Made by a program: the position numbers and the translations under genes. Positions 7,546 to 64,000 of a stretch of DNA of 64,000 nucleotides are shown piece by piece. Source of the DNA: Deltaproteobacteria bacterium (GTDB lineage Bacteria > Bdellovibrionota_C > UBA2361 > SZUA-149 > JADZAE01); assembly GCA_020852715.1 (NCBI GenBank), contig JADZAE010000034.1, forward strand, positions 192,965 through 256,964, read 5' to 3'. How positions within the stretch are numbered: position 1 is the stretch's first letter; each line of letters opens with the position of its first letter. The notes under the pieces are model-generated. The model did not search any database. It was given only the letters and a program-made list of their open reading frames with translations, and had not been told where the DNA came from.

Positions 7546-7546
7546 T

Positions 7547-11576: not shown

Positions 11577-11586
11577 TCGATAGCGC

Positions 11587-13301: not shown

Positions 13302-13304
13302 GCT

Positions 13305-14066: not shown

Positions 14067-14067
14067 C

Positions 14068-25572: not shown

Positions 25573-25787
25573 ACAACCTCAAAATAAAAAATACCGAAAA
25601 ACCAGACTACAATAATTATGGGCAAACGCTAAAAAAGTGTGGCACTCAGCAACATGAAATTATGACTCGATATGAGCCAAATTAAATGTTACCGAGGGGG
25701 TAATGCATAGTGTTGAAAATACTAGATTAAGTTATACGATGAGTCATAATTCCGGTTACCGAAAAGCAAGAAAGGGAGTAACCGAAG

Positions 25788-26873: not shown

Positions 26874-26901
26874 AGATAAAACAAATAAGGTCACATTTAT
26901 C

Positions 26902-27561: not shown

Positions 27562-27569
27562 AAAAGACT

Positions 27570-30738: not shown

Positions 30739-30839
30739 AAACGTTTAAAAGAACACTCTATGTTCAACCCTACCCATGAACGGTGACCCCATGACTAAGT
30801 AATCGGAAAAAAACGCTGTTTTCATAATGGTAAAATACG

Positions 30840-30877
30840 TTTTTCCGACTATTCTTCTAGTTTTAATAGTCGGAAAA
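30840..30877. promoter_or_regulatory. 13-bp perfect inverted repeat in a divergent intergenic region (candidate operator)
   Basis: TTTTCCGACTATT-(11 nt)-AATAGTCGGAAAA, between the divergently transcribed cyclophilin/vWA operon and the FG-GAP protein gene. Confidence 0.4.
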
Positions 30878-31096
30878 ATAAAAGACTATTATATTAACTA
30901 GTTAAGCCCGTAACTGAATATTTCACTCGTTATTCCGCAGTAGAGGCACAAAAGATTTCGTGGTCTTAAGCAACTAATCAACAGTGCATTGCTTGACTTG
31001 TCCAATTCAGGCTTAAATGCTAACGATCCACTCTAAAGTTTTTCAGTATCAAGAAATAAACATCAAAAGAGTATTACTTTTAATAACGACTGAGTC

Positions 31097-33394
31097 ATGA
31101 AAGAGGTGCGTGACATGAGTATCGGAAAAAAATATTTATTGACCTTAACTGCTTTTGTCTTGCTTACCGGCATGGCATCGGCAAGCGTCGAGGTTGCTAA
31201 TAAAGGCATCGCCAGCGATAGCCTCACCGTTTCCACAGATTTTGATGGTGACGGCAAGGGAGATCTCTTTGCTTACGATCCTTCCATTGGTAAATTTTAT
31301 GTTCGCCGCAGTAGTAATAAAACTGTTGGTAGTTTTATTTTAGGCGGAAAAGGTCTAACCCCGACATTGGGCGATTTTAATGGCGATGGTCGTGGGGATT
31401 TGGCTGTATTTAGCCGCACTTCGGGGAGATGGATAGTGCGTCTCACCGGCATTGCATCATACCGCCTTACTTTAGGGTCACGTGGCGATTATCCGGTTCC
31501 CGGTGACTATTTGGGATTAGGGTGCACTCAATTGGCGACTTATAACCTTAGACGAGGCCGTTGGACCATTGGCAGCTGCGTTAATCCCTCTAGCTCACTA
31601 CAAGTTAAAGCAGCCGCGCCGACAACTGTCACTTTCGGTGGCTCGGCTGGCGGATTGATGGCTGTTCCCTCTGACTATGACTGCGATGGTAGAACGGATC
31701 TCGCGGTTTTTAATCGTTATACCGCTCGCTGGACAATAAAAAAATCCTCGAACAGCGCGACTATATCTTTTAGATACGGGGCAATCGGAGACATGCCTGT
31801 TCCTGCTGATTATCGAGCACAGGGATGCACTCAGGCTGCGGTTTATAAACTTAATACTAACCGTTTTTACGTCTGCAAGGACTGCCGCAACGGAGTAACC
31901 GGCACATCTTATCGCAGCGTTCAGTGGGGATTGTTAGGGGATAGACCGGTATTAGCTAATCCCGATGGAACTCCCGGAGCGAATTACATAGTTTATCGCC
32001 CAAAAGAGCAGAGATTTTATAACTATAGATCGACTAATCCGATGATCATTAGCTCGGCAGCCACTGCCTTAAGCGGTATGCCTGCTAGTTTATTGCCCGT
32101 GTCCCCTCTGCATGTTCTTAATTCCTACCAAAAGGGAGACTATAACCGAGATGGGTTAAGCGATTTTGCCACCGCTGAAGGAAATGACAGTTCGGCGACC
32201 TGGAAAGTCCGCTACAGCATCGACCTAGCTAATCAGCGTAGTGCCATTGTCGCCGCTAAAGGCGATGCCTTGGTCCCTGCTGACTATGATGGTGATGGAG
32301 TAGTTCAGCCGGCCACGGTTACAGCGATTAGTGCTGATGTAATTCGTTGGCGCATTAAGAACCCTTCGGGAAGCGATACAGTTGTCGATTACGGGAAAAA
32401 CGGGGATAAGCCGCTGCCTGGAGATTTCGACTGCGACGGCAAAGCTGATTTGGCCGTTGTGCGCAAGAAAGACGGGATTTTCCTTTTCTGGTATATGCAG
32501 CTTTCTAGTGGCACGAACATCAACGATAAGCTTTTCGGCTTAAATGCTGATTTGCCATTTGTCGGTGATGTTGACGGGGATGGTTGCACAGAAATGGTTG
32601 TCGCTCGTCCGACAGGCACTACTGTTGAATGGTATTATAAGGATATCTACAACAGCACACATAAGATGCTTAGCTGGGGACTACCGACAGACACCGTATT
32701 ATCACCGATGGATATGAACGGAGATAACATCGATGACTTCATTGTCCAACGTGATGTGAACGGAGCTAATGTTGTTTATGTGCGTTATTCACGCTTAGAT
32801 AAGAATAGCTTAAGCTACCCGAACTTCCCTTGGAAGGCGATTAACTTCGGCTTAACAGGCGATGTCACAGCAGTCGGTAACTATGATGGCCCCGGACGTG
32901 CGGAAGTAGCAGTATATCGTCGCAGCACTCCGGCGTACTACTGGAATAAATATCGCTCGCAAACAGTTGTCGTCCCACACGGTGCAGCAACAGACAAAGT
33001 AATTAGACCTGACGGCACTGTTGTTTTACCAGGCGAGACGCCGGGCGGTGGTAGCAATCGTTGCGATGTGAACAAAAGCCCCTATGACGGTGCAAGCAAT
33101 GGTTTTACTTGGAAACCTCATGCCGAGGGAGGAGCTTACGGTGGTCATCCGACCGTCCTTATTCCTTCCGGTTATAGCAGCGTTCGCGAGTTAACATTGT
33201 TATCCTCAAGTGGCGAAGAATTACCTGGTCAACCAAAATTCCGTTACATCCGTCCGGAAGATGGTAGGCCAACGTTCGATAACCCAATGAGCGCAAGCGA
33301 TATGCAAGACTATGCACCGATAACCGTGCTCTTCAATTATGGTGGCAGTAATGTCTGCTACGAAATTGATGATCCGTCGGACCGCCACGACTAA
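31097..33394 (+). CDS. Secreted FG-GAP-like (integrin-alpha-type beta-propeller) repeat protein
   Basis: Signal peptide. About 11 repeats of GDFDGDGKGDLFAY / GDFNGDGRGDLAVF / SDYDCDGRTDLAVF type. Paralogous to the C-terminal parts of ORFs 22729-25572 and 25788-26873. Confidence 0.7.
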   Translation: MKEVRDMSIGKKYLLTLTAFVLLTGMASASVEVANKGIASDSLTVSTDFDGDGKGDLFAYDPSIGKFYVRRSSNKTVGSFILGGKGLTPTLGDFNGDGRGDLAVFSRTSGRWIVRLTGIASYRLTLGSRGDYPVPGDYLGLGCTQLATYNLRRGRWTIGSCVNPSSSLQVKAAAPTTVTFGGSAGGLMAVPSDYDCDGRTDLAVFNRYTARWTIKKSSNSATISFRYGAIGDMPVPADYRAQGCTQAAVYKLNTNRFYVCKDCRNGVTGTSYRSVQWGLLGDRPVLANPDGTPGANYIVYRPKEQRFYNYRSTNPMIISSAATALSGMPASLLPVSPLHVLNSYQKGDYNRDGLSDFATAEGNDSSATWKVRYSIDLANQRSAIVAAKGDALVPADYDGDGVVQPATVTAISADVIRWRIKNPSGSDTVVDYGKNGDKPLPGDFDCDGKADLAVVRKKDGIFLFWYMQLSSGTNINDKLFGLNADLPFVGDVDGDGCTEMVVARPTGTTVEWYYKDIYNSTHKMLSWGLPTDTVLSPMDMNGDNIDDFIVQRDVNGANVVYVRYSRLDKNSLSYPNFPWKAINFGLTGDVTAVGNYDGPGRAEVAVYRRSTPAYYWNKYRSQTVVVPHGAATDKVIRPDGTVVLPGETPGGGSNRCDVNKSPYDGASNGFTWKPHAEGGAYGGHPTVLIPSGYSSVRELTLLSSSGEELPGQPKFRYIRPEDGRPTFDNPMSASDMQDYAPITVLFNYGGSNVCYEIDDPSDRHD

Positions 33395-43738: not shown

Positions 43739-44833
43739 CTACCAGGCGTAGGAACCCGAACGATACTCCACCCTCGCCACCTCCCCCTTAGCCTTATCGG
43801 CGGGCAAAAAAGTAACACGCGTTGGCAAGCAGGGAATTTGCAAAGAAAGGGCCCATTGGCGCCAGAAGTTATTACGTTCTGAATATTTTACGGCGGGATC
43901 ATCAATGCCCATATCGAAGTTACTGGGAAGTGCGTACGGAATAACTAAAGTCTTAGCGCCGCGGACTTTACTAACTTGGGAATAGTCAGTGGGATTATAC
44001 CAAGTGGCCTCATATTTTTTAAGATGTGGTCCCCAAGTGGCTAAAGGACGCATTTCTATTTTTGACTCACGACAAATATTCAGAGTTTTCATTTCAGGAT
44101 AGCCATCGGTATTGAGTTGAAAAATAGATTCGCTTTGTTGTTGTTCGGCCAGCGCCTCGTCCGCAGTGGTCTCCGGAGTAGTATCTCCTTGGTTAGAATA
44201 ATAAGAGCGCATAGTCATTAACGTAAGCACGTTTATTAATTGCGTCTTTTCCTCTGTGGGCTTTTCGTTCTCATCGTCATAATAGTAATCAGTGTCGGCT
44301 TGGTAATCTTCAAAAGTATAATCGCGAAAAGCCTCATCCTGCTCGGGGCTAGAACCGGTATTAGTCGTATCAAATAACGGCGTTACATTCTTCTGCTGAA
44401 TAAGAGGAGCGGCGGAGCTTGATGAGCAACCCATAGCCGTCATGCAAAATTTGTTTTTCTTTTTTGGCAGGACTTCTAACAAAGCAGTTTGTATGTCTTT
44501 TACCGGAATAGAAAGTAGGTCTTCAGGATCACAGCGCATAAAAGGAATGGGTTTGGTAAAATCTAGTTTTTCCGAGCAATTTATCGGCTTAACATCCTCA
44601 AGATCAGCGCTGATCTCATCAAGATTTAGTTCGCTTTCGTCTTTATTGGTATCTTCGCTAGCATAAGGAGAAGCTCCCGGTTTTTGTGCCTCGCTGCCAG
44701 GTTTCGAAAATAAATAATCACTGCGCACATTGTTAGTGTTTTGGGCAAAAGAAATAGGTAATGCAACACACAGCAGCAGGATGAGGACAACAATTGCATG
44801 ACTCTTTAACAATTTTGATAATTGACTATCCAT
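43739..44833 (-). CDS. Secreted acidic low-complexity protein with conserved C-terminal domain (paralogue A)
   Basis: Signal peptide. Asp/Glu/Pro/Thr-rich middle. C-terminal about 100 aa (...WYNPTDYSQVSKV...IPCLPTRVTFLPAD...) is similar to the C-terminus of ORF 47439-48512 (...YYDASDYKQVQKA...VECLPTSVEFVQAE...). Confidence 0.5.
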   Translation of the reverse strand: MDSQLSKLLKSHAIVVLILLLCVALPISFAQNTNNVRSDYLFSKPGSEAQKPGASPYASEDTNKDESELNLDEISADLEDVKPINCSEKLDFTKPIPFMRCDPEDLLSIPVKDIQTALLEVLPKKKNKFCMTAMGCSSSSAAPLIQQKNVTPLFDTTNTGSSPEQDEAFRDYTFEDYQADTDYYYDDENEKPTEEKTQLINVLTLMTMRSYYSNQGDTTPETTADEALAEQQQSESIFQLNTDGYPEMKTLNICRESKIEMRPLATWGPHLKKYEATWYNPTDYSQVSKVRGAKTLVIPYALPSNFDMGIDDPAVKYSERNNFWRQWALSLQIPCLPTRVTFLPADKAKGEVARVEYRSGSYAW

Positions 44834-44851
44834 GACATTTTTGTGGTCTAA

Positions 44852-47422
44852 TTATTGCCAACCACCTGTATTACCACCAGCATTGCCACCGCCATCTAAT
44901 CCGCCAATACTTCCCCAATTAATCATAGGTTGCCCGCCCTGCTGCTGAATAACCATATTCAGCATATCCATAAGCGGGTCATTTGGATTCTTCTTTTTAC
45001 TTGGTTGGCGGGGGGGGTTACTGTTTTTACCGCAACCGCGATCAGAACCAACAGGGCCCCAAATCGCTTCGCATTTTGCGCGATTTGCCCGGTTCACGGT
45101 TCCAACAAATGGATAAATTTGATAGGCCGAACAGGCATAAGGGAAATCTGCCGGAAAGCCTTTTCTTACAGTCCCATAAAGCTTATCTTTGGTGGGGAAC
45201 TCATCTCCTTGATCACGCCAAGGGTTAGAGCCAAAGGCATTATAGGCTTGGCAACCCCAACCTTTCTTTTTAATAGGCAGATTATCTTCGATAATTGAGC
45301 GATACTGACAAGAGCAGGCTGTTCTTCTATTCCAGAACATCAAGCGTACAGAACCCAAATGCCATGACTGCATCAGATCGGCAGGAAATTCCGCATGATT
45401 TTGCTCCCAGACCCAGGGGACATCTATACCTGAATCTTGAGATTCAGAAGATGAACTACTGGAACTGAAGCCGGAAGAAAGCTGATTATACATATAAGGT
45501 GTCGAGCTGGCGCTAGACGAACTTTGGCTACTAGACTCAAAGGTTACATCTTTGGACTTCATTTCCCCTTTGTCGCTAGGATTCATGCGAAAGCAACGAC
45601 TCACTTTAGGGTAAACCAACTGCAGTTTATCAATATACATTTTCCTAGCCGAGGGATCTTTGCCAAAAAAATCAGTAAATAGCGGTAAGCCTACATGCGG
45701 CACATAAGGAATATTATGTCGCGGCCAGTTATATTGTGTCGGATATTTCTCACGCATTTCTTGCACAAGTTCTAAAAAACGGCGCGCAGCTACAGTCGCT
45801 GAGGTTAACGGATGATGGAAACCACAAACTGTATTGGTTGGCGTCCAAAGAATAGAGCCGTGATAATAACAAAACTCACAATCCCCCTTATCCACCTTTC
45901 CCTGCCCAAATAATCCCGCTAGTGGCGATTGGGGAATGGCATTATTAAACAGCTCTTCACCGCCAACTTTACCCGAGATGTTGCCAAACAATGGATCAGG
46001 AACACCGGCCATATTAGACCAAATTTCGTGGCGACATTTTAGGCATTTATTGATCATCGGTAAAGCTGCTGCTGTTCCACCAAAATACTTTCCCTGAGCA
46101 GCCATCATTTCCTGGGTAGTGACTTCAAATTTAAAATCGCCCATTCCGGGGATACCGGAAAAGTCAGGATGCTCGCCGCGCTTATATTTGTCCTTATTTA
46201 CAAACTGCGTCATGATAGGCTGGCGCCAGAAACGAGCATATTCCGGATATTCTTCTGACCAAGCAACGGGACGAAACTTCTTTTCTAAGTCACCATTTTT
46301 AACCGGTTTATCGGGGAGCGAATCAAGAAAGCAAGGGATATTATTTTTCCAGATATAACCGTTCCACCAATAAGGCCGACTGCAGCAACCTTTACGACAT
46401 CTATAAAACCAGCAACCGTCGGCACCATGACCCGCTCGGCTTTTAGGCCAAGTATAATTAGAGGCTGTGACCTTAGGACGGTAAATATGCGCTTCGAAAG
46501 TCTGGCACTGATCAAGTGGGCTTATACCTCCGGTATGTGTTTGGCCTTTGCCTAATTTCGCCAACGGCCCTTGATAAACATCTTCAATATTCGAAGATTT
46601 ACCTTCCATATCCAAGGCACGGTTAGTTTCAGTTACATTCTTTTCATATTCCGGATAAAAGCTCGAGTCTTTACGTTTGATCAAAGACTTAGTGGATAAA
46701 TCAGGTCGATTAAAAAGCTCTATTGGTTCGGGGTTCACTGCGCTGACACCAAAGTTATTGACGTCGATTTCCCATTCCGGCCACCAATACTCCCAGATCT
46801 CTCCGGGGTTACGACGCGGCATACAGTCGTTAAATGGGTAAACGATTTTCGGCTGACAATATTCACAGTTTTGTCTTTTTAAACGTGGCTCAAAGCATTC
46901 ATGAAACATTTGCCAACCGGCACGACTGGCTTCTCTTGCCGGCGCCGCTTTAGGATTATACTGAAGGTTTGGGTTGGCTAATAATTCTTTCTGGGTTGGC
47001 TTTTTGGGTGCCTCAATATCTTTGGCTACTCCGGCAGGACCTAGAATAGCAACGGTAGAATCAGCTGACCAGTCACCTCCTGAGTATTTGATGTCGCGCC
47101 CATCGCGCCACGGATGTTCTTCAAAAGAACGCTCTTCGATGTTGCTTTTTATGTGTTTGGCCAACTCGCTGGCATCATATTGATAGCTAGGTTCCATCGC
47201 TCTACCCACAGCCTCTTTAACGCGCTGATGCATTATCGGATTATCAATAATCGCACCCGGGTTGTTAATCGTAGCACCTGGGATTGCGCCCCCGGTTGGT
47301 GCAGCTGTAGGCCCGGGATTGTTGATCGTCGGATCACCGCCAACCGTATTATCCATCCACTGTGCCCTAGCCTGACCATAACCTAGTAAAACAAATAAAA
47401 TTGCCACAATTAATTTCTTCAT
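44852..47422 (-). CDS. Large secreted Cys/Trp/Pro-rich protein of unknown function
   Basis: Signal peptide. 856 aa with about 30 Cys in clusters (CEYCQPK, CWFYRCRKGCCSRPYWWNGYIWKNNIPC, CLKCRHEIW, CEFCYYHG). Very high Trp/Tyr content. A Ser-rich tract. A C-terminal Gly/Asn-rich tail. Confidence 0.55.
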   Translation of the reverse strand: MKKLIVAILFVLLGYGQARAQWMDNTVGGDPTINNPGPTAAPTGGAIPGATINNPGAIIDNPIMHQRVKEAVGRAMEPSYQYDASELAKHIKSNIEERSFEEHPWRDGRDIKYSGGDWSADSTVAILGPAGVAKDIEAPKKPTQKELLANPNLQYNPKAAPAREASRAGWQMFHECFEPRLKRQNCEYCQPKIVYPFNDCMPRRNPGEIWEYWWPEWEIDVNNFGVSAVNPEPIELFNRPDLSTKSLIKRKDSSFYPEYEKNVTETNRALDMEGKSSNIEDVYQGPLAKLGKGQTHTGGISPLDQCQTFEAHIYRPKVTASNYTWPKSRAGHGADGCWFYRCRKGCCSRPYWWNGYIWKNNIPCFLDSLPDKPVKNGDLEKKFRPVAWSEEYPEYARFWRQPIMTQFVNKDKYKRGEHPDFSGIPGMGDFKFEVTTQEMMAAQGKYFGGTAAALPMINKCLKCRHEIWSNMAGVPDPLFGNISGKVGGEELFNNAIPQSPLAGLFGQGKVDKGDCEFCYYHGSILWTPTNTVCGFHHPLTSATVAARRFLELVQEMREKYPTQYNWPRHNIPYVPHVGLPLFTDFFGKDPSARKMYIDKLQLVYPKVSRCFRMNPSDKGEMKSKDVTFESSSQSSSSASSTPYMYNQLSSGFSSSSSSSESQDSGIDVPWVWEQNHAEFPADLMQSWHLGSVRLMFWNRRTACSCQYRSIIEDNLPIKKKGWGCQAYNAFGSNPWRDQGDEFPTKDKLYGTVRKGFPADFPYACSAYQIYPFVGTVNRANRAKCEAIWGPVGSDRGCGKNSNPPRQPSKKKNPNDPLMDMLNMVIQQQGGQPMINWGSIGGLDGGGNAGGNTGGWQ

Positions 47423-47438
47423 TGTGTAGTCCTTTTAT

Positions 47439-48512
47439 TCACTCCCAAACCTTAGCCCCGGTGCGTGTCTCTAAATAATTACCATCTTCAGCCTGCACAA
47501 ACTCCACACTAGTTGGTAAGCATTCAACGCCGGAAATCACTGCAAACTCCGACCAAAAATCGTAGTTATTAGGGTTAGCATAGTCATAATCCACAGCCTT
47601 AGGATTATAGGCCACCACATGTTTCTTGGAATTTTTTGCCTTTTGCACCTGTTTATAATCGCTAGCATCGTAATAAACGGAGTTATAAAGCTGCACGCCT
47701 AAAGACAGACTGCCTAGAGGATCTCGCTTAACTGTCGAAGCAGCACATGGCGGTAAAGAATAATCCGGCTCATACTTGGGCGTTTTCTCCGTGTTTTCGT
47801 CTTCCTTGCTATCGCTATCTTCGTCCTCGTCATCATCTTCTTCAGTCTGCTCTAACCAGCCGCGCGAAGCAGTGGCCGTAGGCGCTTGCACTGGTTGTCT
47901 AACAGTTGTAGTTGTCGCTGATGGCTGTCTTGTTAAGTTACTCCAATCATTCGCGCCTTTCTTATTGCCACCATCATCAGCCACTGCTGGTGGCGTTTTT
48001 TCTGTATTTTGCGTGCCTTGATTAGCATTCCCCCAAAGACGATTATCTGATCTGGGTTCAGTTTTTACCGCCGGCTGCGTAGTTACGTTGTCGCGTGGAG
48101 CAAATACATCTCTGCCGGGCAATGGCTGCATTGCTGGTCTTTGCGGCTGAGTGACTACCGGTGGCGGAGTTTGTTTATCGTTCTCTGCTGCTGGAGCATT
48201 GTTATTCATAAGGTTATCAAGATAATTTCTCATATCGCCGGGAAGGGGCTTAGCTGTCGGGACAGTATTTACAGTCGGAGCCGGCGGAGCAATAGGCAAA
48301 GCTCTGCTTGGAGCTTGTTGCGCTGCGCGATTGGCATTTTTAATGATATCATCAACAGAAGAAGACGGTTTAGAAGGTTGAGTTCTTGGTGACGGTTCAG
48401 GACCGAATGCAGACTCTCCATAAGCCGTGAAATTAACAGCCAGCAAAGCTAGTGATGCTACCGTCAATAAAAGAAGCAGATAGGAAAATTTAACTCGACC
48501 GTTCATCAACAA
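47439..48512 (-). CDS. Secreted Pro/Thr/acidic low-complexity protein with conserved C-terminal domain (paralogue B)
   Basis: Signal peptide. Pro/Thr/Gln-rich region and a DDDEDEDSDSKEDE acidic block. The C-terminal domain is shared with ORF 43739-44833. Confidence 0.5.
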   Translation of the reverse strand: MLMNGRVKFSYLLLLLTVASLALLAVNFTAYGESAFGPEPSPRTQPSKPSSSVDDIIKNANRAAQQAPSRALPIAPPAPTVNTVPTAKPLPGDMRNYLDNLMNNNAPAAENDKQTPPPVVTQPQRPAMQPLPGRDVFAPRDNVTTQPAVKTEPRSDNRLWGNANQGTQNTEKTPPAVADDGGNKKGANDWSNLTRQPSATTTTVRQPVQAPTATASRGWLEQTEEDDDEDEDSDSKEDENTEKTPKYEPDYSLPPCAASTVKRDPLGSLSLGVQLYNSVYYDASDYKQVQKAKNSKKHVVAYNPKAVDYDYANPNNYDFWSEFAVISGVECLPTSVEFVQAEDGNYLETRTGAKVWE

Positions 48513-48777
48513 AATTTTTGCACAACCCGTTAATTAGATCTAACAACAAACAACCGAAAGGACCCTCAATGATATTGTGATAACATTAAGAAATAATTGT
48601 GCATTTATTATTTTATCAGCAATAAACTACCCATATGCCCAAGATGAAAAACAACCAGCACTAAATTACCCCACACATACTCACTCTTTTGCTCTAACAC
48701 CCACAATCTGAAAAGCATTATTTATCTTTTTATTGCTTAAACCTTTATAACCCCCTTGCCAGACAAAGAAAACTTCA

Positions 48778-48819
48778 CTTTTCCCTAGCACCCCCCACCT
48801 TTTCCCTAGCACCCCCCAC
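48778..48819. repeat. Tandem direct repeat 2 x 21 bp (cttttccctagcaccccccac)
   Basis: Exact duplication read directly, in the AT-rich region upstream of minus-strand gene 47439-48512. Confidence 0.8.
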
Positions 48820-48950
48820 TATTTTTTTCTGATGCCCATAATGTTCTTAGGGAACTGCGCAAAATCGAAAAATATGGCTCCAATAAAATACTAAGCTCTT
48901 ATAGCGAAAGGGTTTTTATTGGTTTTGATTGGTGCCCTGCACCAGCGAAA

Positions 48951-51002
48951 TCATGGAAATAGATAGGGGATTAACTCCTTACCGCTGAGTCCAGCACCGA
49001 AATATAGGGGCTTTTCAGGATAGAGCTGATTGTAATGCGTTTGCTTTGCTTCATAGGTGCTGATGCGCTCTTGCTTAAGAATTTCGCTCCACTGGGCTAC
49101 TTCCTTAAGATAATTAAGATTAATGCTTGCCCGCGATTGAAAATCTAGGTCATTCGATACTGCCCAAAACTGAGAGGCTAGGTGCAGGGCCAAAATAACA
49201 GTAAGGCATTTTCTAGCTAAGGCGTTTTTTAACTTAGCATCTGAGATAATATAGTAAGCAAAGATGCAGATCCCAACAAAAGCTAAGTGCTGATAACGTA
49301 ACGATAAAGATTGCTGATAACAGTAAATCCAGCGCCCTATAGCCGGTAGCAGCAGAGAAATAATAAGCCAAGCCTGAGATATTAGATATACGCCTATAAC
49401 GCTGCGGTTATTCTTTTTGGTTTTAAAAGTCAGCCCCATGGCCAGCAAAGACACAAGCAGACCACAAAGAGCAAGCGTGATTTCCGGAAAATATCGGATA
49501 AAGGGCACTGCATTTAAAAGTTCATTCGGCGCATAAAGCGATAAAAACGGAAAAAGCCCCAAGCCACGTAAAATAGTTCCTAATTGTGAACCAATAAAAA
49601 GATAAGCCAAAAAACGCCGAACTATTTTTCCCGTACTAAATTCGCTGGCCATAGTAGCTTGCGCGCTTGGCGCCTGCAGGACCTCGGTAAACATATAAAG
49701 CACCAACACAAGCACAGCAGCAAGCATAGAAATTATTCCCAGCCTAAGCACGGCGCGGCGATTAAAATGACCGTTAATCGCCAACTCCAAAATGCAAACT
49801 AGCCCCACTAAAGCAAAGGCGGCTAAGCCATTGCCAAAGGACAAACAAGCAAGTAAAAGAAGAATATTTGCCTTAATTAAGGCCAGAGATTTATTTTCGC
49901 GAAGATACTGCAAGCCAAAACAAAAGCCCCAGAGCACAAAAACCTGCATCAACAACAAGCATTGAACAAAAGGCCATTGCAGCACTTCAGCTTGCAAACA
50001 GCTTATGGCAAAGAACAACAAAAGCATGCGCCGAGTAATAGTATTACTATTTTTGTAAAACAACGCGGCCAGAAATTTATCCAATGATAAAACGCTAAGC
50101 ATAAACAAAAGATAAGTCACGAGCGAATAACCTAAATACCAACTACCGAATACCTTAAGCTGAATAAAATATAAGGCAAAGAAAAGCGGAATAAAATGCT
50201 CATTATGACTTTGAAAAATCATACGCCACCCTTCGTCCACGCTCTTTATCAAAATATTCCATTCATCAGCATAAAAAGACAAAGGCATCTTAAAATGAAC
50301 CAAGGCACTTAGCGCCAGCACAAGCAAGGCAAAATTAGCAGTTTTTGTTAAATACGGCCCACATTTAAGAATAAACAAAGCAAGCGCAGCACCCAATAAA
50401 ACACAAATAACCAGGCGGCCACCTTTGAGCGGCTGAACCCAAGCGTCACCAGCTGCGGCACGAAAGAAATTCAAGCGCCGCTTAACTGTCAGCTGTTGAA
50501 AAACAGCACTGGCAGCGCTCACCTGTATATAAACATCTTTACCAATATGCTCAGGGGAAACAGTAAACTGAAAAGGTATAAAATACTTTTTCTGTTCTTC
50601 ATTTACTATCGATAAGGGAACAATAAATTGCGCAATTTGCTCGCCGTCTTTGCTCTTTACTTGCAGCTTAAAATCGGCACGACTTTTGTAAACAAATTCT
50701 ATGATGTTTCGAGTCAATTTGAAGCTCGACGAGCGACAAAATTCTTGTGCAATAATCGCATCGCCTTGAAAATAGCATTCCCTACGCTCCGGCCTAGCGC
50801 CCTGTTCCCAATTAAGACCAATGAAAGAATCATAATCAGCCGTCGGATAAACAAGTAGCAAACGATAAAAAATCACCGCCGCCAGAAACAGTAAAAGCCA
50901 GGTAATTTTCTTAATAGTTGGTGACACCGGGTTCCTTAAATTTTCACAATTTAACCCAGGCGGTCGTATAGCAGTATGGCTAATAAAAGCCAAAGCCTGC
51001 AA
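48951..51002 (-). CDS. Polytopic membrane protein (about 14 TM) with N-terminal extracytoplasmic domain. Possibly a GT-C-type glycosyltransferase.
   Basis: 683 aa. One N-terminal TM, a soluble domain of about 150 aa, then many TM helices. FYADEW acidic motif in an early loop. No family assignment possible by eye. Confidence 0.5.
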   Translation of the reverse strand: MQALAFISHTAIRPPGLNCENLRNPVSPTIKKITWLLLFLAAVIFYRLLLVYPTADYDSFIGLNWEQGARPERRECYFQGDAIIAQEFCRSSSFKLTRNIIEFVYKSRADFKLQVKSKDGEQIAQFIVPLSIVNEEQKKYFIPFQFTVSPEHIGKDVYIQVSAASAVFQQLTVKRRLNFFRAAAGDAWVQPLKGGRLVICVLLGAALALFILKCGPYLTKTANFALLVLALSALVHFKMPLSFYADEWNILIKSVDEGWRMIFQSHNEHFIPLFFALYFIQLKVFGSWYLGYSLVTYLLFMLSVLSLDKFLAALFYKNSNTITRRMLLLFFAISCLQAEVLQWPFVQCLLLMQVFVLWGFCFGLQYLRENKSLALIKANILLLLACLSFGNGLAAFALVGLVCILELAINGHFNRRAVLRLGIISMLAAVLVLVLYMFTEVLQAPSAQATMASEFSTGKIVRRFLAYLFIGSQLGTILRGLGLFPFLSLYAPNELLNAVPFIRYFPEITLALCGLLVSLLAMGLTFKTKKNNRSVIGVYLISQAWLIISLLLPAIGRWIYCYQQSLSLRYQHLAFVGICIFAYYIISDAKLKNALARKCLTVILALHLASQFWAVSNDLDFQSRASINLNYLKEVAQWSEILKQERISTYEAKQTHYNQLYPEKPLYFGAGLSGKELIPYLFP

Positions 51003-55419: not shown

Positions 55420-56001
55420 ATGCCTGAAGCGCAAAATAACAACTCATCGACGAGAAACTTCGACAGCGAACTGGCGCGCCTTGAGCGCTTAACAGAAGAG
55501 CTGCGCGTTCAGTATGAGCAGTATTTTATTGATATTGTGCCGCTGCCACCGGATAAACTTCACGCACAAGTAAAATCCCTCATCCGCACACTACTCAAAG
55601 CTCCATTTAAAAACTCCGCCGACCGCTTTCGCCTGCGCACAGCCGTGCAGCGCTATAAAACTTTTGAAACCTATTGGACACGCATTCTCAAACAACGCGA
55701 AGAAGGCACTTACAGCAAAGATGTTTTTAAATTGGAGATGCGCCAAAAAATGCTCGAAGAAGCCGAGCGCCAGGCCTCCGAACTTGGCAAGGCCGAGAAA
55801 GGCATCAAGCAGCTCTTTAACAGCTATCAAGAAGCACTTAAAAAATCCGGTAATAGCCAAGCAAATTTAGAATTTGATTCCTTCAAAAAAACCCTACTCG
55901 CCAAAGCCAGACAGCTGAAAAAAGAGCACAATGTCACCAAACTCAATTACAAAATCGTCATGAAAAACGGCAAGGTGCTCATCAAAGCCCAAGCCAAATA
56001 A
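55420..56001 (+). CDS. Hypothetical Lys-rich coiled-coil protein
   Basis: 193 aa ORF with no recognised motif. Confidence 0.4.
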   Translation: MPEAQNNNSSTRNFDSELARLERLTEELRVQYEQYFIDIVPLPPDKLHAQVKSLIRTLLKAPFKNSADRFRLRTAVQRYKTFETYWTRILKQREEGTYSKDVFKLEMRQKMLEEAERQASELGKAEKGIKQLFNSYQEALKKSGNSQANLEFDSFKKTLLAKARQLKKEHNVTKLNYKIVMKNGKVLIKAQAK

Positions 56002-56243
56002 ATTAATCATTTTCGATTGTGGTCGATTACTTTGTCAGACTTCGCAGGTCGAGAGCTACTGCTGGGCTCTTGACTCGAACAACAAAACTGCCCGGTTGAC
56101 TCGATAACTAGCTATTTATATTAAATTAACCCTTTCCCTTAACAGCCAGGTGCCAGGCACCCACTTCGCATGCTTCCGTTTCTTTAATCTTCAGCATAAC
56201 ATCCTCTGAAACTTTACCCTAAGAGGCAGAAAGGAGGCACGGT

Positions 56244-56760
56244 GATGAAACTCATCGTGTTTGATATTGGTAACGTTATCTGTTCTGTCGAGATCGGCAG
56301 AACAGCAGTAGCGTTGTCAAAACAATTTCCCTGCGGCGTCAGCGCTGATTAAATCGTCACGTTGGCCCGCGAGATGCGGTTGGCGCAAGGGGGCTACAGC
56401 GGGCAAGAGTTTTATCTTCAGTTGACTGCAAGTCTCGGCTATCTGGCCGGGTATCAGCAGTTCGTAGAGGATTGGAACTGTTGCATGGGAGAAGTCGCGG
56501 AGGGGATAGAATTCCTGATCTGCGATTTGCAGGCCGCCGGACACCGGCTTGCGATTCTCTCGGACAATAATCCGCTTCATTGGGAGTATTGTCTGGAGGA
56601 TTTTCCGCGAGTCCTCTTCCCTTTTGTGGGGCACATTTTCTTGAGCTTCCAAATCGGAAGCTGCAAGCCCAGTTCTGAAGCTTTTAGGACTGTGTCAGTG
56701 CCAGTCGCCCTTTCTAACTGCGAAACTGTGCTGACGCGAACAATCCTTCTCGGTCGTGCC
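56244..56760 (+). pseudogene. Frameshifted/truncated HAD-superfamily hydrolase gene fragment in a locally GC-rich segment
   Basis: MKLIVFDIGNVI (HAD motif I) then a stop after 36 codons. In another frame: LAILSDNNPLHWEY...FVGHIFLSFQIGSCKP (HAD motifs II/III). GC content is visibly higher than surrounding DNA. Confidence 0.5.
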
Positions 56761-56839
56761 GCTTGGCTTCGGGTTACCCACATGTTATGAGCACATAAGG
56801 GGTAGGGTCATTGCTGGTAATTTAAATTAAGGAGAGCAC

Positions 56840-57817
56840 ATGACAAACAAAATTAAAATAGCGATAGTCGGCTGGGGAAATGTGGGTAGAGGTGTCGAGG
56901 CCGCAATTAAACAAATAAACGACATGACAATCAGCGCTGTTATCTCGCGCGACACAGACAGAGTAAAAAAAGAAATCGACAATCGCCTACCGATGTTCAG
57001 CACAGAGAAAGTCAACGAAGTAAAAGCCGATCTGGCCATACTTTGTGGCGGTTCGGCTACAGACTTACCCTATCAAGGACCATTCTACGCCAACCTTTTT
57101 AACACTGTAGATAGCTTTGATACACACAGCGACATACCTAAATACTTTGCCGCGATGAATGAAGTATCACAGTCAAAAAAGCATATCTCGATTATCTCTG
57201 CCGGTTGGGATCCGGGCACATTTTCCCTAGAAAGAGTGTTGGCCAACTCTTTTATTCCGCAATCCAAAGCCTATACATTTTGGGGCCGCGGCGTGAGCCA
57301 AGGACACTCGCAAGCAATCAGAGCAATCGAAGGCGTAGCTGACGGCATTCAATATACAGTTCCTGCCGAACAAGCCCTAGCCACAGTTAGAAGCGGCACC
57401 AATCCGGAGCTAACAACAAGGCAAAAACATACTCGTGAATGCTTCATTGCTTTAAAACCCGGCGCTGATGAAAAGAAAATTAAGGAGCTTATCGTTAATA
57501 TGCCCAAATACTTTTCAGATTTTGACACAACGGTGACCATAGAAAGCGCCGAGCAAGTGGCCGAAAGGCGCAAAGCCATGCCTCATACCGGCTTTGTTAT
57601 AACTTCGGGAAAAACCGGTAACAATAAGGCGCTCATTGAATATAGAAATCAGTGGGACAGTAACCCGGATGCAACGGCCTGCATATTAGTCGCTTGTGCG
57701 CGCGCTGCTTTTCGCCTGCGCCAAGAAGGCAGATGCGGAGCACTAACCATGCTCGACATTCCACCTTCTTATTACTCACCGTTATCTCACGCTGAGCTGC
57801 TAAGAGATTGGATGTAA
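56840..57817 (+). CDS. ddh: meso-Diaminopimelate D-dehydrogenase
   Basis: MTNKIKIAIVGWGNVGRGV...CGGSATDLPYQ...SAGWDPGTFSLERV...FWGRGVSQGHSQAIR...HTGFVITSG matches recalled Corynebacterium Ddh along its length. Confidence 0.85.
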   Translation: MTNKIKIAIVGWGNVGRGVEAAIKQINDMTISAVISRDTDRVKKEIDNRLPMFSTEKVNEVKADLAILCGGSATDLPYQGPFYANLFNTVDSFDTHSDIPKYFAAMNEVSQSKKHISIISAGWDPGTFSLERVLANSFIPQSKAYTFWGRGVSQGHSQAIRAIEGVADGIQYTVPAEQALATVRSGTNPELTTRQKHTRECFIALKPGADEKKIKELIVNMPKYFSDFDTTVTIESAEQVAERRKAMPHTGFVITSGKTGNNKALIEYRNQWDSNPDATACILVACARAAFRLRQEGRCGALTMLDIPPSYYSPLSHAELLRDWM

Positions 57818-57833
57818 ATAGGGCTAAGCAAAA

Positions 57834-58574
57834 ATGGAAGCCCGGCAAGAATTCTATGACTTTGAATATTACCTAAGCCTGGAGTATCGTTATTTCTCTC
57901 GGTCGCACCGAGGCCGGGTTTCCTCTTTATTGAATTTCCTCGGTGACATTTCTAATAAATCCATATTGGACTTTGGCGGCGGCGCAGGGCACTTGGCCTA
58001 TTTCATGTCCCAGCGCGGCGCTAAAGTAACTGTCGCTGATTATTCCAAAGCAGCGCTTACCTTTGGTGCTGCGCGTTTTCCCACTTTAAGCTTCGTCGAA
58101 GCTGATTATAAAAACCTAAGCTCAATAAAGGAAGAGTATCCGATCATCACTTGCTTTGATGTCATTGAACATTTAGCCGAGCCGCAACTGCTTCTAGCGA
58201 ACCTTGCTCAGTGCTTAGAAGCGGGTGGCAAGCTCTACATTTCCACAGATAATGAAATGAGCCCCTTTGCCACAAACCACTTACTCAAGCGGCTGGATAA
58301 TTATTGGCGCTGCTTATCCGGCGAAGGGCGCGATTATGCCTTAATCAAAAAAGTAGAAAGCTATCGGCGCAGCATTTTAAATAAGGACTATCATCAAAGC
58401 CATGTGCAAGAATTCTCGCCGACGCGCCTAAAAGAGCTACTTGAGCAAAATGGCTGGCAAACAGACATGTTCATTGGCTATCACCTTTGGTCAAACCCCT
58501 TAAAAAACCTCATAACCAAGCTACTAGGAAAAGAAAGCGCAACAGCTTTTGCTTATTGCTGCTCGAGGCGTTAG
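57834..58574 (+). CDS. Class I SAM-dependent methyltransferase
   Basis: Motif I ILDFGGGAGHLA and DVIEHL. Confidence 0.7.
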   Translation: MEARQEFYDFEYYLSLEYRYFSRSHRGRVSSLLNFLGDISNKSILDFGGGAGHLAYFMSQRGAKVTVADYSKAALTFGAARFPTLSFVEADYKNLSSIKEEYPIITCFDVIEHLAEPQLLLANLAQCLEAGGKLYISTDNEMSPFATNHLLKRLDNYWRCLSGEGRDYALIKKVESYRRSILNKDYHQSHVQEFSPTRLKELLEQNGWQTDMFIGYHLWSNPLKNLITKLLGKESATAFAYCCSRR

Positions 58575-58583
58575 ATACAGGTA

Positions 58584-59309
58584 ATGATTTATAAAATTAA
58601 AAACAAAATCACTAAAATGCTAAGCGACTTTTATCTAGGTCTTTTTGGCTACCCTTCTGCCGATTTTAGCGTTGACTACAATAAATATGGGCTTAAAAAA
58701 TTTCCGCAAGATCCCCACAATATCTCGGTATTCCGGAAAAAACGCGCCGAGCTGGTTAATAGCTTAATCAGCCCTAACTCCACTGTGCTCGACCTAGGTT
58801 GCGGCGACGGAGCAATCTTAATTTACATTGATGATCATAATCTCATCGACGGCACAGGAGTTGATATCACGGAGCAGAGCAAGGTAGCGCTTGGCGACCA
58901 TGACTTAAAATTCATCAAAGCCGACATCAGCGACCTAAAAAATACAACGCTGATCCCCGCAGCAGATCATGTTTTATTATTAGAACTAATCGAGCACTTC
59001 TCTAATCCCGAAGCACTACTTAGTGCCTACTTAGCCAAGGCAAATAAGGGTGTAATCTTCTCTGTTCCTAACACAGGCTTTGTGCTTCATCGCCTGCGCC
59101 TCTTGTTCGGCCGCTTTCCTCTGCAATGGCAGCTCTACCCCGGGGAGCACTTAAGATTCTGGACAATTAAAGACATGCACTGGTGGCTTAAAAAGCAAGG
59201 CTTTCAAAATGCCCAATGTCATTACTATCGCGGCGTGCCTGTATTAAATAACCTTTGGCCTAATCTTTTTGCCGCCGGCATCATAGTTCAGATCCCTAGC
59301 GAAAAATAA
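58584..59309 (+). CDS. MetW-like SAM-dependent methyltransferase
   Basis: VLDLGCGDGAIL and a C-terminal FSVPNTGFVLHRLRLLFGRFP...LRFWTIKDMHWWL that resembles the MetW C-terminal region. Confidence 0.65.
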   Translation: MIYKIKNKITKMLSDFYLGLFGYPSADFSVDYNKYGLKKFPQDPHNISVFRKKRAELVNSLISPNSTVLDLGCGDGAILIYIDDHNLIDGTGVDITEQSKVALGDHDLKFIKADISDLKNTTLIPAADHVLLLELIEHFSNPEALLSAYLAKANKGVIFSVPNTGFVLHRLRLLFGRFPLQWQLYPGEHLRFWTIKDMHWWLKKQGFQNAQCHYYRGVPVLNNLWPNLFAAGIIVQIPSEK

Positions 59310-59315
59310 ATTTAT

Positions 59316-59356
59316 AGCCATACTTTAGATTTACAATATAAATCTAAAGTATGGCT
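59316..59356 (-). terminator. Strong hairpin (18-bp perfect stem, 5-nt loop) between convergent genes. Likely intrinsic terminator for the minus-strand giant gene.
   Basis: AGCCATACTTTAGATTTA-caata-TAAATCTAAAGTATGGCT. On the minus strand it is followed by a T-rich run (reverse complement of aaaaataaatttata). Confidence 0.65.
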
Positions 59357-59464
59357 AATGATTGTCATTATAAAATCAAATGCTTACCACTAATTCATTA
59401 AGTTTTACCGGGACGATTACATATCTATATTGGATGTGATCAAAACAAGAAGGATTAGTGAATC

Positions 59465-62400
59465 CTAGCGCGCTTGTTGCAAGGTTTGTAAAGCCGCTTC
59501 GATGGCTTTTAGGCGTTCGTCTTGTTGAGAAATTTGCAGGCGCTGTTTTTCGATTTCTTCTTTCTGTTTGGTGATTTCTTCATTTTGCTTAGCTAGGTCT
59601 TCTTTTTGCTGCGCAATGACCTTTTGTTGTTCTTGCAGGGCCGATACCAGTATTGCCTCCATACCGCTAGGATTATAGGTTAAGTAGCCATTAGGATCAG
59701 TGCCAATAAATTCCGGTATTATCTTTTCTACTTCTTGGGCGATAAAACCATAATGCTCTTTTTCATTTTCACCGCCGTATAACTCTTTCATCTTGTCGTT
59801 ATATTTAAACTTAACCGGATTTAAAGCGAGCACTTTAGCCAAGCCATCATTAACCTCGCCTAATATATTTTTTAACCTGCCATCAGATGTTGCCGCCCAG
59901 GTATTTCCGCCTTCGGTCTTATAAGCATCCCCCACTACATGCAAAGCCTGAGAGGGAGTATTGGTGCCAATACCAACCTCATTATCTGCGGCATCGACAT
60001 ACAAAGTATTGGAATCAACATTAAGACCGCCAAAGGCCACAGTAGAGGTAGTCGTTAAATGTTGGCCGGTATTATATGCTAGCTGCGTATCACCTACAGA
60101 ATCAGCAGTGATCGAGACGGTCACCGTATCTGTCGCTCCCGCACTCGTTGTTATACCGGTGCCTGCCGCAATCGTAACAGTATCGCCATTGGCAATTGTC
60201 TGAGTAGAACCGCTAGTGCCCGCTAGCTGAAAACTGCTCATGCCGCTTTGCGCCGAAGCACAAGTAAATGCACCGGTCGAATCAATATTAGAAATACCGT
60301 AAGTGCAAGGACCACCATCAAAGAAATTAGAAGCATCGGCACTGTCATAGAGATTATCCAGCTCCGCACCGCCAACAACCTCTAACTTACTAGTTGGCCC
60401 ATTTGTTCCCACACCAACATTACCCGTCCCATTTGGCATAAGAGCAATATGCTGATTGGAAACTGTCGTAATATCGTTTGTCACGCCAGAGAAAACTAAG
60501 CTGCCGGTCATGGTATCACCAGCATCTAAAACGAAGGCGGCCGCATGTGAACCATCAACAGTATCGGCATCTACTGATCCGCCAGTCCCGGCGGCTGACC
60601 AGCTTAGAGCTCCGCTGCTGTTGGAAGTTAAATATGCCGAGGCTGCTGGTTTTGCGCTTGGTAAGGTGTAAGTTGTGCTTTCGGACATCGCCGCATTCGG
60701 CTGGAAAACGACGTTGTAGTCTGTCGCACCTTGTTCTGAGTATATTGTCAGTGATCCATCTGCACCGTTGCTACCCAACTGCAGAGCATTATTCACTGTC
60801 AGCGTCTTGGTAACGACTGTGCTGCCTACTCCGACATTACCCGTAACTACTAAATCTCTAATCGCTCCGGTATTACCAATGCCCACATTACCTGTTCCGG
60901 CAGGAACTAACAGCAGATCTTCATTTCCCGCGGTGACAATGTCAGAAACAGCACCATTTAAAGTAAGCGCTCCCGACACCTGCAGCTTTGTTGTTGGCAT
61001 GGTAGTACCAATACCAACATTTTCACTGCTATTAATAGTTACAGCAATAGCATCCGAGCCATCGCTGATGCCGCTATCTGCTAAATTTGCACCGCTGTGC
61101 TTTACTAGGCGATTATCTGTTGTGGCAGTGATATTATGGCCATCGACTGACGTCGCGTCACCGGCAAATGTAGTTGCCGTTAAAGTTCCAGAACTTGGAT
61201 TAAACGTTAGTTTGCTAGAAGAAACTTTCTGCGCCTGATTTCCGGATGCTGTCGTAACCCAAGTAGGATACATTGTGGCGTTCGTGGTCGTATCATCAGT
61301 AATCGCCGTATTCGTTGCATTAGTCGCTGTGGTCGCCGTGTCCGCATTGCCGATTAAGGATCCAATAAAACTTGTCGCGTTAACTGAACCATTTACTTCC
61401 AACTTCTGCGTTGGCGCAGTAGTACCAATACCGACATTTCCCGTGCCGTTTGGCATAAGAGCAAGATGCTGATTAAGGCCTGTCGTAATATCGTTTGTCA
61501 CGCTAGAGAAAACTATATTTGAGTTGGCGCCAGACATGGTTAAGGCACCGGTCATGGTATCACCAGCATCTAAAACGAAGGCGGCCGCATGTGAACCATC
61601 AACAGTATCGGCATCTAGCCCGCCACCCGAACCTTCCGCCGTAAACGTAAGTCCATGCACATTGCTCGTCGCGGTACTGTGACTAGCAGCACTGTCCCAA
61701 TTTGCGCTGTTATCAGTGATTGTAGAGTAAGTACTAGCGCCCGTTCGTTTTAATAGCCCCGTCGTGCTAAATGTTCCATCCAGCTCATCACCGCTAACTG
61801 TATCATTAGTAGAATCAATACCATCAGCATCCAAGAAACCGGTCTTTAATACTGATGTGGTAGCACCATCGCAATATTCGAGGGCACCGCTATCTAAAAC
61901 TTGCATTTTGCCTTGGTTGCTAGCGCCGCAAGTTAAGCTAGTAGACCCACCATCTGTTAAGAAAGCTGCCTCCGTGGAAGCAGTGTTCACAGTAGGAGTC
62001 CAGCCTTCTCCCGCTGACCCGGAGACCACAATACCAGCTCCACCTGTAACACTAAGAACATAATTTCCGGTGGTATCAGTTCCTAAGGCAACAGCATTAG
62101 CCGCAATGGCAACAGTTCCCGTTGTGCCAATAGTCGCATCACCATTCATCGTTACTAGTGCCGGCGCATAAGGACTAGCTCCAGTAACAAAAACTTGACC
62201 AGAGGCAGTTCCATTAGACAAAGAAACTGTCTTTGTTGCACCTTCTCCATCCGCTCCGCTCACGGTAATCTGCCCCATAGTTCCGGCAACTGTTGCCACG
62301 TAGTTACCAGTTGTATCTGTAGTTAGCGCTACAGCATCGTTAGCGATAGTAGCACCGACAGATCCGGGACCACTAGCAGTAACATCACCGGTTAGCGCAG

Positions 62401-64000
62401 TAATATAATTGCCGCTGGCTTGCTTACTATTAAACGTGGTCCAGTCGCCTGAGCTTAAGTAACCATTAGTCGAACCATTAGCCTGCGTTATGGAAAGCGC
62501 TCCGGCAGCCGATAAAGACAGTGGGGCACTGGCACTTACAGCTACAGTTCCTGAAGCATCAGGTATAGTAATCGTTCTATCCGCGGTCGGATCTGTTACC
62601 GTGACTAATGTTTCATTGGCATTTGCTGTAGCACCTTCGAAGATCAGTCCTGTTGTGGCAAATGCTGCATAGTTAGCAGTTAAAGCCGGGTCGGCAGCCA
62701 AGGTTGCTGTGCGATCCAGCGTTAAAGTCGGGTTTCCGGAAACACCGTTACCGTTGGAAACAGCAACATCAAACGTCGTTCCGGTTAGGGTGCGGCCGGT
62801 AAAGGTATCAGCGGCTGTTTGTGTTAATAAGCCGTTAGTGTTGTATGAAGCTAAAGCGCTTAAAGTGGCATCGCTTGCTTGATACCCTGAGTGTCCGTGT
62901 CCACCCGCACAAAAATAACCGCTATCACAATCACCGGTAGCGTCTCCGGTTATCGTATAGGCGGTTGTCCCGCTACCGCTACAACTGGTAGCAGCATTGG
63001 TACATGTTAAAGTGCTTAACTCATTGGTCGTGCTGCCATCAACTTCAGTAGCGCTGATAGTCAAAGTATCGCTCGCGGCATTTCCGGTAATAGAAACGAT
63101 TCCACCAGCAGCTAAGGTCAGAGTATCGGTTGTGCTGTCGGCTACCGGATCTGTGCCCGCTGGTGCGTCAAAAGTCTGGAAGATATTCTGCAACTCATTG
63201 CTCGTGCTGCCATCAACTTCAGTAGCGCTGATGGTTATAGTGTCAGTGGAGGAGTCACCGGTTACCGTAACTATGCCACCACCACTTAGGTTTAATGTGT
63301 CTGTTGTGCTGTCAGCTACGGGATCTGTACCGGAAGAAGCATTGATTGTTTCAAATAGATTCTGGCTATAGGCGCTATGTGTATGGCCGCTGGAAGCAAA
63401 AGCTCCCGAATCCAGGCCGTCTAACAAATCAGCGTTAAGGTTGGTGTTAAGCGTAGTTGAGGTGATAGCAAATGGCGATGTGCCGTTGGCCACAGTGGAA
63501 GTGTAGCGCGTGGCTGAAACTAGGCCATTAACGGTCAAATCCTTACTGACTGCTGTCGTGCCAATGGCGACATTGCCTAATAAGCTCGCATCGCCGCTGA
63601 CACTTAGAGTGTTGCTTAAAGTAGTGGTGCCCGTAACATTAGCCGTTCCGGCTACAGACAACTTGTAATCAGGCGCAGTGGTGCCAATACCAACATTTGT
63701 TCCGTTGTCATAAATAATAGAATCGCCAACGCTTCCCGAGCCGAAAAATTTGGTGACATAGTTAAGCGTTCCGCTTCCGGTTATTCCCGTCAGGTCAGTG
63801 TCACAACTCCACGTTCCGTTTGTACCATTATAAAGAAGCTTATCTCCGGCTCCGGAACAATTGGAGCTATAGTTGATAGATACCGTCGGAGCCGGGCCTG
63901 TTGAATTGCTTACCGAGATACCGTTTCCGGCATTAACATCGGTTAAGTCACCGCCGGCGTCGCCGGTGATAGAATCCCAACTAAGCACACCGTTAGCGCC
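59465..64000 (-). CDS. Giant tail-fibre-like surface protein with C-terminal S74-type intramolecular chaperone domain (N-terminus lies beyond the window end)
   Basis: ORF open at the window edge (more than 1507 aa). Recurrent [13 protein letters not shown] repeats. Gly/Thr/Ser/Ala-rich beta-strand composition. C-terminal ...[12 protein letters not shown]...NPVKFKYN...[13 protein letters not shown] and a final coiled coil, matching the autoproteolytic chaperone domain of phage tailspike/endosialidase-type proteins. Confidence 0.75.

Follow-up and report, generated by a model that had tools for sequence, protein, structure and literature searches.

A very long, S74-ended fibre protein of mosaic tail-fibre-type modules at a contig end of a Deltaproteobacteria bacterium

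The closest described systems to the gene analysed here are the mosaic adhesive trimer (MAT) fibres of Bdellovibrio bacteriovorus. Caulton et al. (2024; PMC10769870) reported 21 chromosomal MAT fibres, located at the cell surface, in this bacterium. MAT fibres carry a signal peptide followed by a conserved, beta-rich, cell-proximal N-terminal domain of ~130 aa, and 13 of the 21 end in an S74 domain with an SDxxxK motif (PMC10769870). Self-cleavage of one member, Bd3182, was seen experimentally and was abolished by S782A. The MAT capping loops follow the consensus V-G-G/N-pi-x-x-P-x-x-x-L, which is shared with MyRF, and Supplementary Table S3 of the same paper lists MAT-like fibres in other bacteria, including the S74-ended BMS_2153 of Halobacteriovorax (1,915 aa). 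We analysed a 64,000-nt stretch (the window) of contig JADZAE010000034.1 from a Deltaproteobacteria bacterium, a metagenome-assembled genome (MAG). Positions 59465–64000 of the window encode, on the minus strand, the 3' part of a gene for a very long S74-ended fibre. We lean, with some reserve, towards reading this fibre as a chromosomally encoded, exported surface adhesin of the bacterium itself, of the MAT S74-subgroup kind. A bacterial S74 fibre outside the virion is already described, and on this reading the present gene is an unusually long, mosaic further example.

The fibre resembles the MAT S74 subgroup (e.g., Bd3182) in several respects: its gene is chromosomal as far as the surroundings are visible, it is rich in Thr, Ala, Gly and Ser, it has capping loops, and it ends in an S74 domain with the SDxxxK motif. 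In addition, its length is comparable to that of BMS_2153. However, pairwise similarity to the MAT fibres is limited to the loop motif and S74 (phmmer to 8OJN, E 0.044), and the protein is about twice as long as the usual ~1,000 aa of the HD100 MAT fibres. Unlike the described MAT fibres, it has HxH 11-residue repeats and a virus-shared module. The comparison was made without the N-terminus of this fibre, so the defining ~130-aa domain falls outside it. Finally, the host here is a 'Deltaproteobacteria' MAG and not a demonstrated predator.

The fibre gene and its C-terminal chaperone domain

The minus-strand frame at 59465–64000 was open and stop-free over 1,511 codons, ended with a stop at 59465–59467 and ran past the window edge. 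Therefore, the GTG at 63988, taken as the start by the open reading frame (ORF) lister, is not the true start. A protein search returned a 100% identical partial entry of 1,861 aa, encoded on a contig of 258,016 bp (P0001; NCBI 'MAG: tail fiber domain-containing protein, partial [Deltaproteobacteria bacterium]'), which extends the window protein by 350 N-terminal residues and whose first residue is still mid-protein. The source contig ends ~1 kb past the window, within the fibre gene; the 5' end lies outside both the window and the contig, and the full protein is longer than 1,861 aa. The initial annotation of this DNA had given a protein of more than 1500 aa, which both the window part and P0001 exceed. 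When P0001 was compared with the species genomes of GTDB and with JGI metagenomes, only short mosaic matches in unrelated organisms were obtained, and the upstream flank was not recovered. A protein search with residues 1–103 of P0001 (HxH repeats) for a complementary partial protein on a different contig of the MAG gave no match, and even P0001 itself was not returned. No second fibre or S74 gene was found in any frame of the window.

Residues 1372–1511 of the window translation (59468–59887, minus strand) constitute the S74 intramolecular chaperone domain. Pfam PF13884 (Peptidase_S74, IPR030392) matched residues 1372–1431 (59708–59887) with 53.5 bits against a cut-off of 22 (E 3e-14), spanning profile positions 1–56 of 58. 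Besides S74, no Pfam or NCBIfam domain was detected in the fibre protein; matches to NCBIfam FliJ and Pfam DUF16 were below their cut-offs and were dropped as coiled-coil noise. We aligned the last ~290 residues of this protein with 18 relatives carrying the same motif (alignment A2, n = 19). Ser151, Asp152 and Lys156 of the alignment were invariant, as was the G..AQ core of the GxIAQE motif. The catalytic Ser and Lys are five residues apart, and the motif SDGRLK (59870–59887, minus strand) fits the SDxxxK consensus given in PMC10769870. The predicted nucleophile is Ser1372 (59885–59887) and the predicted general base is Lys1377 (59870–59872).

The family profile built from A2 was compared with the PDB. 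It matched the intramolecular chaperone auto-processing (ICA) domain of MyRF (7DC3, 1e-19), a phage distal long-tail-fibre tip (6F45, 1e-19), the phage fibre 8JOV and the GA-1 neck-appendage chaperone 3GUD. It also matched five Bdellovibrio fibre structures (8OND at 7e-25, 8OML, 8OJN, 8OL4 and 8ON4). When the full-length protein was used as a phmmer query, MyRF alone was returned, and profiles were required to reach the MAT structures. An AlphaFold2 (AF2) model of 290 aa, built on A2, had a pLDDT of 77–98 in the chaperone part. In a Foldseek search of the PDB with the chaperone domain, the sole meaningful fold matches were 7DC3 (E 1e-5, TM on target 0.62–0.65), 3GW6 (E 1e-3) and 3GUD (E 2e-2), with probabilities of 0.99–1.0. 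The chaperone domain closes with ~67 residues (59471–59671, minus strand) that formed a single AF2 helix (model residues 223–289, pLDDT 94–98) with a regular hydrophobic heptad register. The S74 domain with its Ser nucleophile and the C-terminal coiled coil, both proposed in the initial annotation, are therefore borne out. The AF2 model was confident for the chaperone and unreliable for the tip preceding the cleavage site. The pLDDT of this tip was below 50, as would be anticipated when one chain of an intertwined trimer is modelled by itself, and the tip model was not used for claims about a binding cleft.

Two groups of proteins outside the MAT fibres share this domain. Phage fibres and tailspikes (K1F endosialidase endoNF 3GW6, T5 pb1 4UW8, GA-1 3GUD and S16/T4-like 6F45) have the same S74 fold and Ser-Lys motif, and the same assembly and cleavage mechanism would be expected. 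The S74 region here is similar to the tail fibres of cultured phages (Thermus, Synechococcus and T4-like) and matched tail-fibre families of the PHROGs. However, the chaperone is longer in this fibre (140 aa with its coiled coil) than in phage-context relatives (96–97 aa), and outside the S74 region nothing in the protein matched the 50,697 deposited phage genomes. The second group is represented by the ICA domain of eukaryotic MyRF (7DC3). It is the best single-sequence and fold match and shares the last capping loop, SDxRxK, GxIAQE and the following helix. Unlike this fibre, MyRF is a membrane-bound transcription factor in which the domain releases the N-terminal part, and it has no long fibre.

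We propose a mechanism that is based on homology throughout. The C-terminal S74 chaperone and its coiled coil would put three chains in register, and this would nucleate the folding of an intertwined beta-helical shaft, starting at the C-terminus. The repeated NVGIGT-type units would act as 'capping loops' at the edges of the beta-helix. Once the trimer has folded, the Ser1372/Lys1377 dyad is predicted to cut the chain at the conserved Ser and free the ~140-residue chaperone, and its release would expose the distal tip for ligand binding. The predicted product, a homotrimeric and very long (>1,861 aa) fibre of phage-tail-fibre-type modules that is nucleated by its chaperone and autocleaved by a Ser-Lys dyad, is well supported by homology. 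The molecular reading of the initial annotation, in which tail-fibre-type repeats are combined with an S74 chaperone and a coiled coil, is backed by the profile, alignment and fold evidence. With Bd3182 (922 aa, modelled at ~550 Å) as the scale, a length of at least ~100 nm would be expected for the mature fibre.

Shaft repeats and exchanged modules

The fibre protein consists of 15% T, 12% A, 12% G and 11% S. Loops of the NVGIGT type ([NE]V[GA][IV]G[TNS]) occurred eight times in the window part and ten times in P0001, in agreement with the six or more repeat units and the Gly/Thr/Ser-rich tracts noted earlier. With the stricter pattern [VI]G[IV]G[TNS], seven were observed versus 0.096 expected, and the maximum in 5,000 shuffles was two. 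The last capping-loop unit (59888–59980, minus strand) lies directly ahead of the cleavage site and would form the distal tip after maturation; its sequence aligns with the stalk loop of MyRF. Several of the loops form the end of a larger module of ~75 aa. Protein self-comparison located this module at 61388–61618 (copy 1) and 60371–60574 (copy 2), both on the minus strand, and two more copies lie in the part of P0001 outside the window. At the DNA level, copy 1 is 81–91% identical to copy 2 (repeats D2/D3), and the gene is internally repetitive, with repeats of 90–120 nt at this identity. A 58-aa unit is tandemly duplicated at 63018–63364 (minus strand), with 73% identity at the DNA level (repeat D1) and 71% in the protein self-match.

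Other parts of the shaft are shared with viral and distant bacterial sequences. A module of ~95 aa (…NATMYPTW…; 61121–61402, minus strand) has counterparts with 60–83% identity in many viral contigs of IMG/VR, as well as in genomes of Bacteroidota and Pseudoduganella. Beyond the window, residues 1–245 of P0001 hold eleven HxH motifs, mostly with an 11-residue period (SLAHDHNTNY / IGHAHSAYLT …), a pattern reminiscent of the metal-binding HxH repeats at the tips of T4-type fibres. No homologue spans the whole protein. The best, P0065, covers 1,047 of the 1,861 residues at ~28% identity, and most homologue matches are blocks of 40–100 residues with 55–80% identity. Its sequence is that of a mosaic, assembled from fibre modules that are widely exchanged.

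A profile made from the nine repeat units of this protein was compared with 177,635 PDB sequences. The top five matches were all Bdellovibrio MAT structures, of which 8OND (6e-10), 8OJN (9e-8), 8OL4 (2e-5) and 8OML (2e-3) were significant, and 8ON4 reached only 0.06. The significant matches were thus confined to MAT structures. The capping loop is also present in phage-context relatives, so that it is a necessary but not a sufficient MAT hallmark, and the match shows kinship of modules and not kinship of context.

Giant fibre-like proteins of Patescibacteria, the candidate phyla radiation (CPR), also share shaft modules with this fibre (P0002, P0009, P0055 and P0082; 30–65% identity over short stretches). 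They are encoded in cellular contexts (Mur ligase, MreB and ATP synthase). Unlike this fibre, the examples examined do not end in S74. One relative, of 2,193 aa and with a Gp34_trimer domain, is encoded in a Candidatus Moranbacteria MAG (L081; JAAXWW010000007.1, 1–6583). It is cut at the contig end and is followed by genes for a Mur ligase, pyruvate kinase and DnaG. Assembly breaks within fibre genes rich in repeats seem to be a regular occurrence.

Cellular fibre or phage fibre

The genes at positions 1–59,309 are those of an ordinary chromosome. They encode glycosyltransferases, an SNF2 helicase, ParB, alanine racemase (Alr), AccB/AccC, SecA, a subtilase, von Willebrand factor A (VWA) and FG-GAP proteins, PBP1A, a GldG-like ABC system, an acyl-CoA ligase, GlmS, GlmU, diaminopimelate dehydrogenase (Ddh) and two methyltransferases. 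The ddh and methyltransferase neighbours named in the initial annotation were recovered, the former with TIGR01921 at 363 bits. In a PHROG scan of the nine nearest proteins, matches were limited to generic methyltransferase families. No genes for an extracellular contractile injection system (eCIS), sheath, tube or baseplate were found within the 59 kb of visible flank. The earlier statement that no phage structural genes are adjacent stands for the 59-kb 3' side, where all genes are cellular; the 5' side lies beyond the contig end, and the step of the initial annotation from this statement to a host surface fibre draws on the 3' side. Since the ddh and methyltransferase genes run convergently to the fibre gene, the visible 59 kb is its 3' (downstream) side, so that partner genes of a prophage, tailocin or eCIS would sit upstream, past the contig end. 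Where a terminal gene breaks its contig and the sequence covers only its downstream side, a lack of adjacent phage genes carries no information.

The methyltransferase gene and the convergent fibre gene are 155 bp apart, and the gap contains a perfect AT-rich hairpin with a 20-bp stem (59315–59357), which is probably a bidirectional terminator. No integrase or att-like repeat was found at this border, and a scan of the window found no tRNA or Rfam element marking an integration site. The G+C content at third codon positions (GC3) of the fibre gene is 0.405, compared with 0.419±0.040 in the other genes. Its relative synonymous codon usage (RSCU) correlates with the rest of the window at r = 0.908, and other long genes range from 0.77 to 0.955. 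The higher overall G+C of the fibre gene is due to second codon positions, i.e., to amino-acid composition.

We looked up the gene contexts of ten relatives, seven of which end in S74. Five of the seven lie among cellular genes: P0066 (MFS transporter and EPSP synthase), P0065 (two-component system and T2SS-type ATPase), P0117 (kinase and ECF sigma factor), P0114 (pyruvate:ferredoxin oxidoreductase genes and a second S74 fibre) and P0094 (LuxC/LuxE). The other two, P0059 and P0020, are in phage-like contigs, and P0020 adjoins a crAss_MUZ gene. Signal-peptide or lipoprotein-like N-termini were found in the cellular-context relatives P0065, P0094 and P0117, and also in P0068, P0077 and P0102, which were outside the ten look-ups. 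The phage-context relatives begin with MAxNQVDFKILPSDQF and have no hydrophobic stretch.

We then ranked all 26 S74 relatives by how similar their chaperone regions are to that of this protein. The top positions were held by P0066, P0099, P0117, P0068, P0094, P0077 and P0065, with 72–117 bits and chaperone tails of 119–296 residues. Signal-peptide-like N-termini were present in five of these seven, and all four whose context had been looked up lie among ordinary cellular genes. In contrast, a phage-type group (crAss-like L043 and L001) scored 47–54 bits and had chaperone tails of 96–97 residues and no signal peptide. A side observation concerns the contig L047 (JGI Ga0247844_1001061, 1–15169), on which two S74-ended fibre genes, of >1,877 and 1,722 aa, lie 5 kb apart in divergent orientation and in a non-phage context. 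This pair may be likened to the multi-copy situation of Bdellovibrio.

Several results lead us to favour a cellular surface adhesin. First, the chaperone domain is nearest to those of signal-peptide-bearing relatives in non-phage contexts. Second, among PDB sequences the repeat profile significantly matches only Bdellovibrio MAT structures. In addition, positions 1–59,309 are all core chromosome, and both GC3 and RSCU of the fibre gene are host-like. Finally, an S74-ended fibre of similar length, that of Halobacteriovorax, is already listed among the MAT-like proteins.

Other observations weigh against a cellular adhesin. The N-terminus lies beyond the contig end, so that a signal peptide and the MAT N-terminal domain cannot be shown, and so does the 5' flank, the expected place for phage, eCIS or tailocin genes given the orientation. 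Prophage tail-fibre genes are often found at the very end of the prophage. Viral contigs match the ~95-aa module at identities of up to 83%, and HxH repeats, as well as motifs of the GDTMTG and DATLSALA types, are typically seen in phage fibres. Three relatives in phage-like or crAss-like contigs (P0059, P0020 and P0003) reach lengths of 1,849–2,108 aa, and there is no full-length homologue with which the fibre could be compared. The SecA of the host is at most 65% identical to its relatives ('Deltaproteobacteria' MAGs) and 57% identical to those of Oligoflexia and Bdellovibrionales. Trimerisation and cleavage are inferred and not observed.

The strongest alternative is that the gene encodes the tail fibre (receptor-binding protein) of an integrated prophage, as its last gene at the border with the host ddh and methyltransferase genes. 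The S74 mechanism would be the same, and the fibre would be mounted on a virion. The orientation, which places all possible partner genes in the 5' flank, fits this explanation, as do the identity of the ~95-aa module to viral contigs, the similarity of the S74 region to cultured-phage tail fibres and PHROG tail-fibre families, and the long relatives in phage-like contigs. However, the border shows a terminator-like hairpin and no integrase, att-like repeat or tRNA, and the codon usage of the gene is indistinguishable from that of host genes. Furthermore, the chaperone domain groups with the signal-peptide-bearing, cellular-context fibres and not with the phage-context ones, and among the deposited phage genomes only the S74 region finds matches. 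We consider a prophage fibre rather unlikely on this evidence.

The fibre might instead belong to a phage-derived cellular machine whose genes lie upstream, either an eCIS or a tailocin. In eCIS loci without an annotated Afp13 fibre, Peptidase_S74 genes recur as a 'shell' component (PMC8213781), and here too the place where such a locus would sit is past the contig end. Against this, the visible flank holds none of the machine's genes, and an eCIS locus was absent from the contexts of all ten relatives looked up. To our knowledge, the known eCIS fibres are also much shorter. A machine of this type is therefore improbable. We regard it as very improbable that the contig end is mis-joined or mis-binned, with phage or other foreign fibre sequence attached through repeats at assembly: the gene does have internal DNA repeats, does lie at a contig end and has a Moranbacteria relative broken in the same manner, but its ORF is unbroken over 5.6 kb into the contig (P0001), its GC3 and RSCU match those of host genes, the intergenic region between it and its neighbour is a normal one with a hairpin, and the repeats are too diverged for a false join inside the window.

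If the fibre is a cellular adhesin, it joins the recently defined bacterial S74-ended adhesive fibres as a very large, highly mosaic example from an environmental lineage. It would then back the view of a single pool of fibre modules common to bacteria and phages, and would give an inexpensive way to recognise, from genomes, lineages that attach to other cells. As the fibre of a prophage it would be ordinary. We tentatively raise the idea that an uncultured 'deltaproteobacterial' lineage without known predators has a chromosomal surface fibre of >100 nm made of virus-derived modules (HxH repeats, a viral-like module and an S74 domain with a long coiled coil). Such a fibre might extend the MAT-like fibres well outside Bdellovibrio and make the lineage a candidate attacher of other cells, as predator or epibiont. 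A Bdellovibrio-like predator as host was considered and dropped, given the SecA identity of only 57% to Oligoflexia and Bdellovibrionales; a predatory role of the host is speculation.

Other features of the window

The four genes beside the fibre gene (55420–59309), which encode an unknown protein, Ddh and the two methyltransferases, have a GC3 of 0.45–0.52, above most of the window. Their codon-usage correlation (0.62–0.74) is below most of the window; these genes are short, and the values may be noise. The first of them (55420–56001, plus strand) encodes a 193-aa protein with an NCBIfam MXAN_5187 C-terminal domain (45 bits against a cut-off of 30). The family is named after Myxococcus, which gives a small hint of lineage.

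Further from the fibre gene, four consecutive large ORFs of 364, 856, 357 and 683 aa occupy 43739–51002 on the minus strand. At least three have signal-peptide-like N-termini, none had a Pfam, NCBIfam or PHROG match, and together they may be an operon of secreted proteins. A 340-aa protein at 10554–11576 (plus strand) gave a sub-threshold match to a flagellinolysin-type HExxH metalloprotease (29 bits against a cut-off of 205). Finally, large secreted proteins are clustered at 22729–33394. This cluster includes a subtilase with CarboxypepD_reg and FG-GAP repeats, a cyclophilin, a 765-aa FG-GAP protein and an 871-aa VWA protein whose N-terminal part is rich in Lys and Glu.

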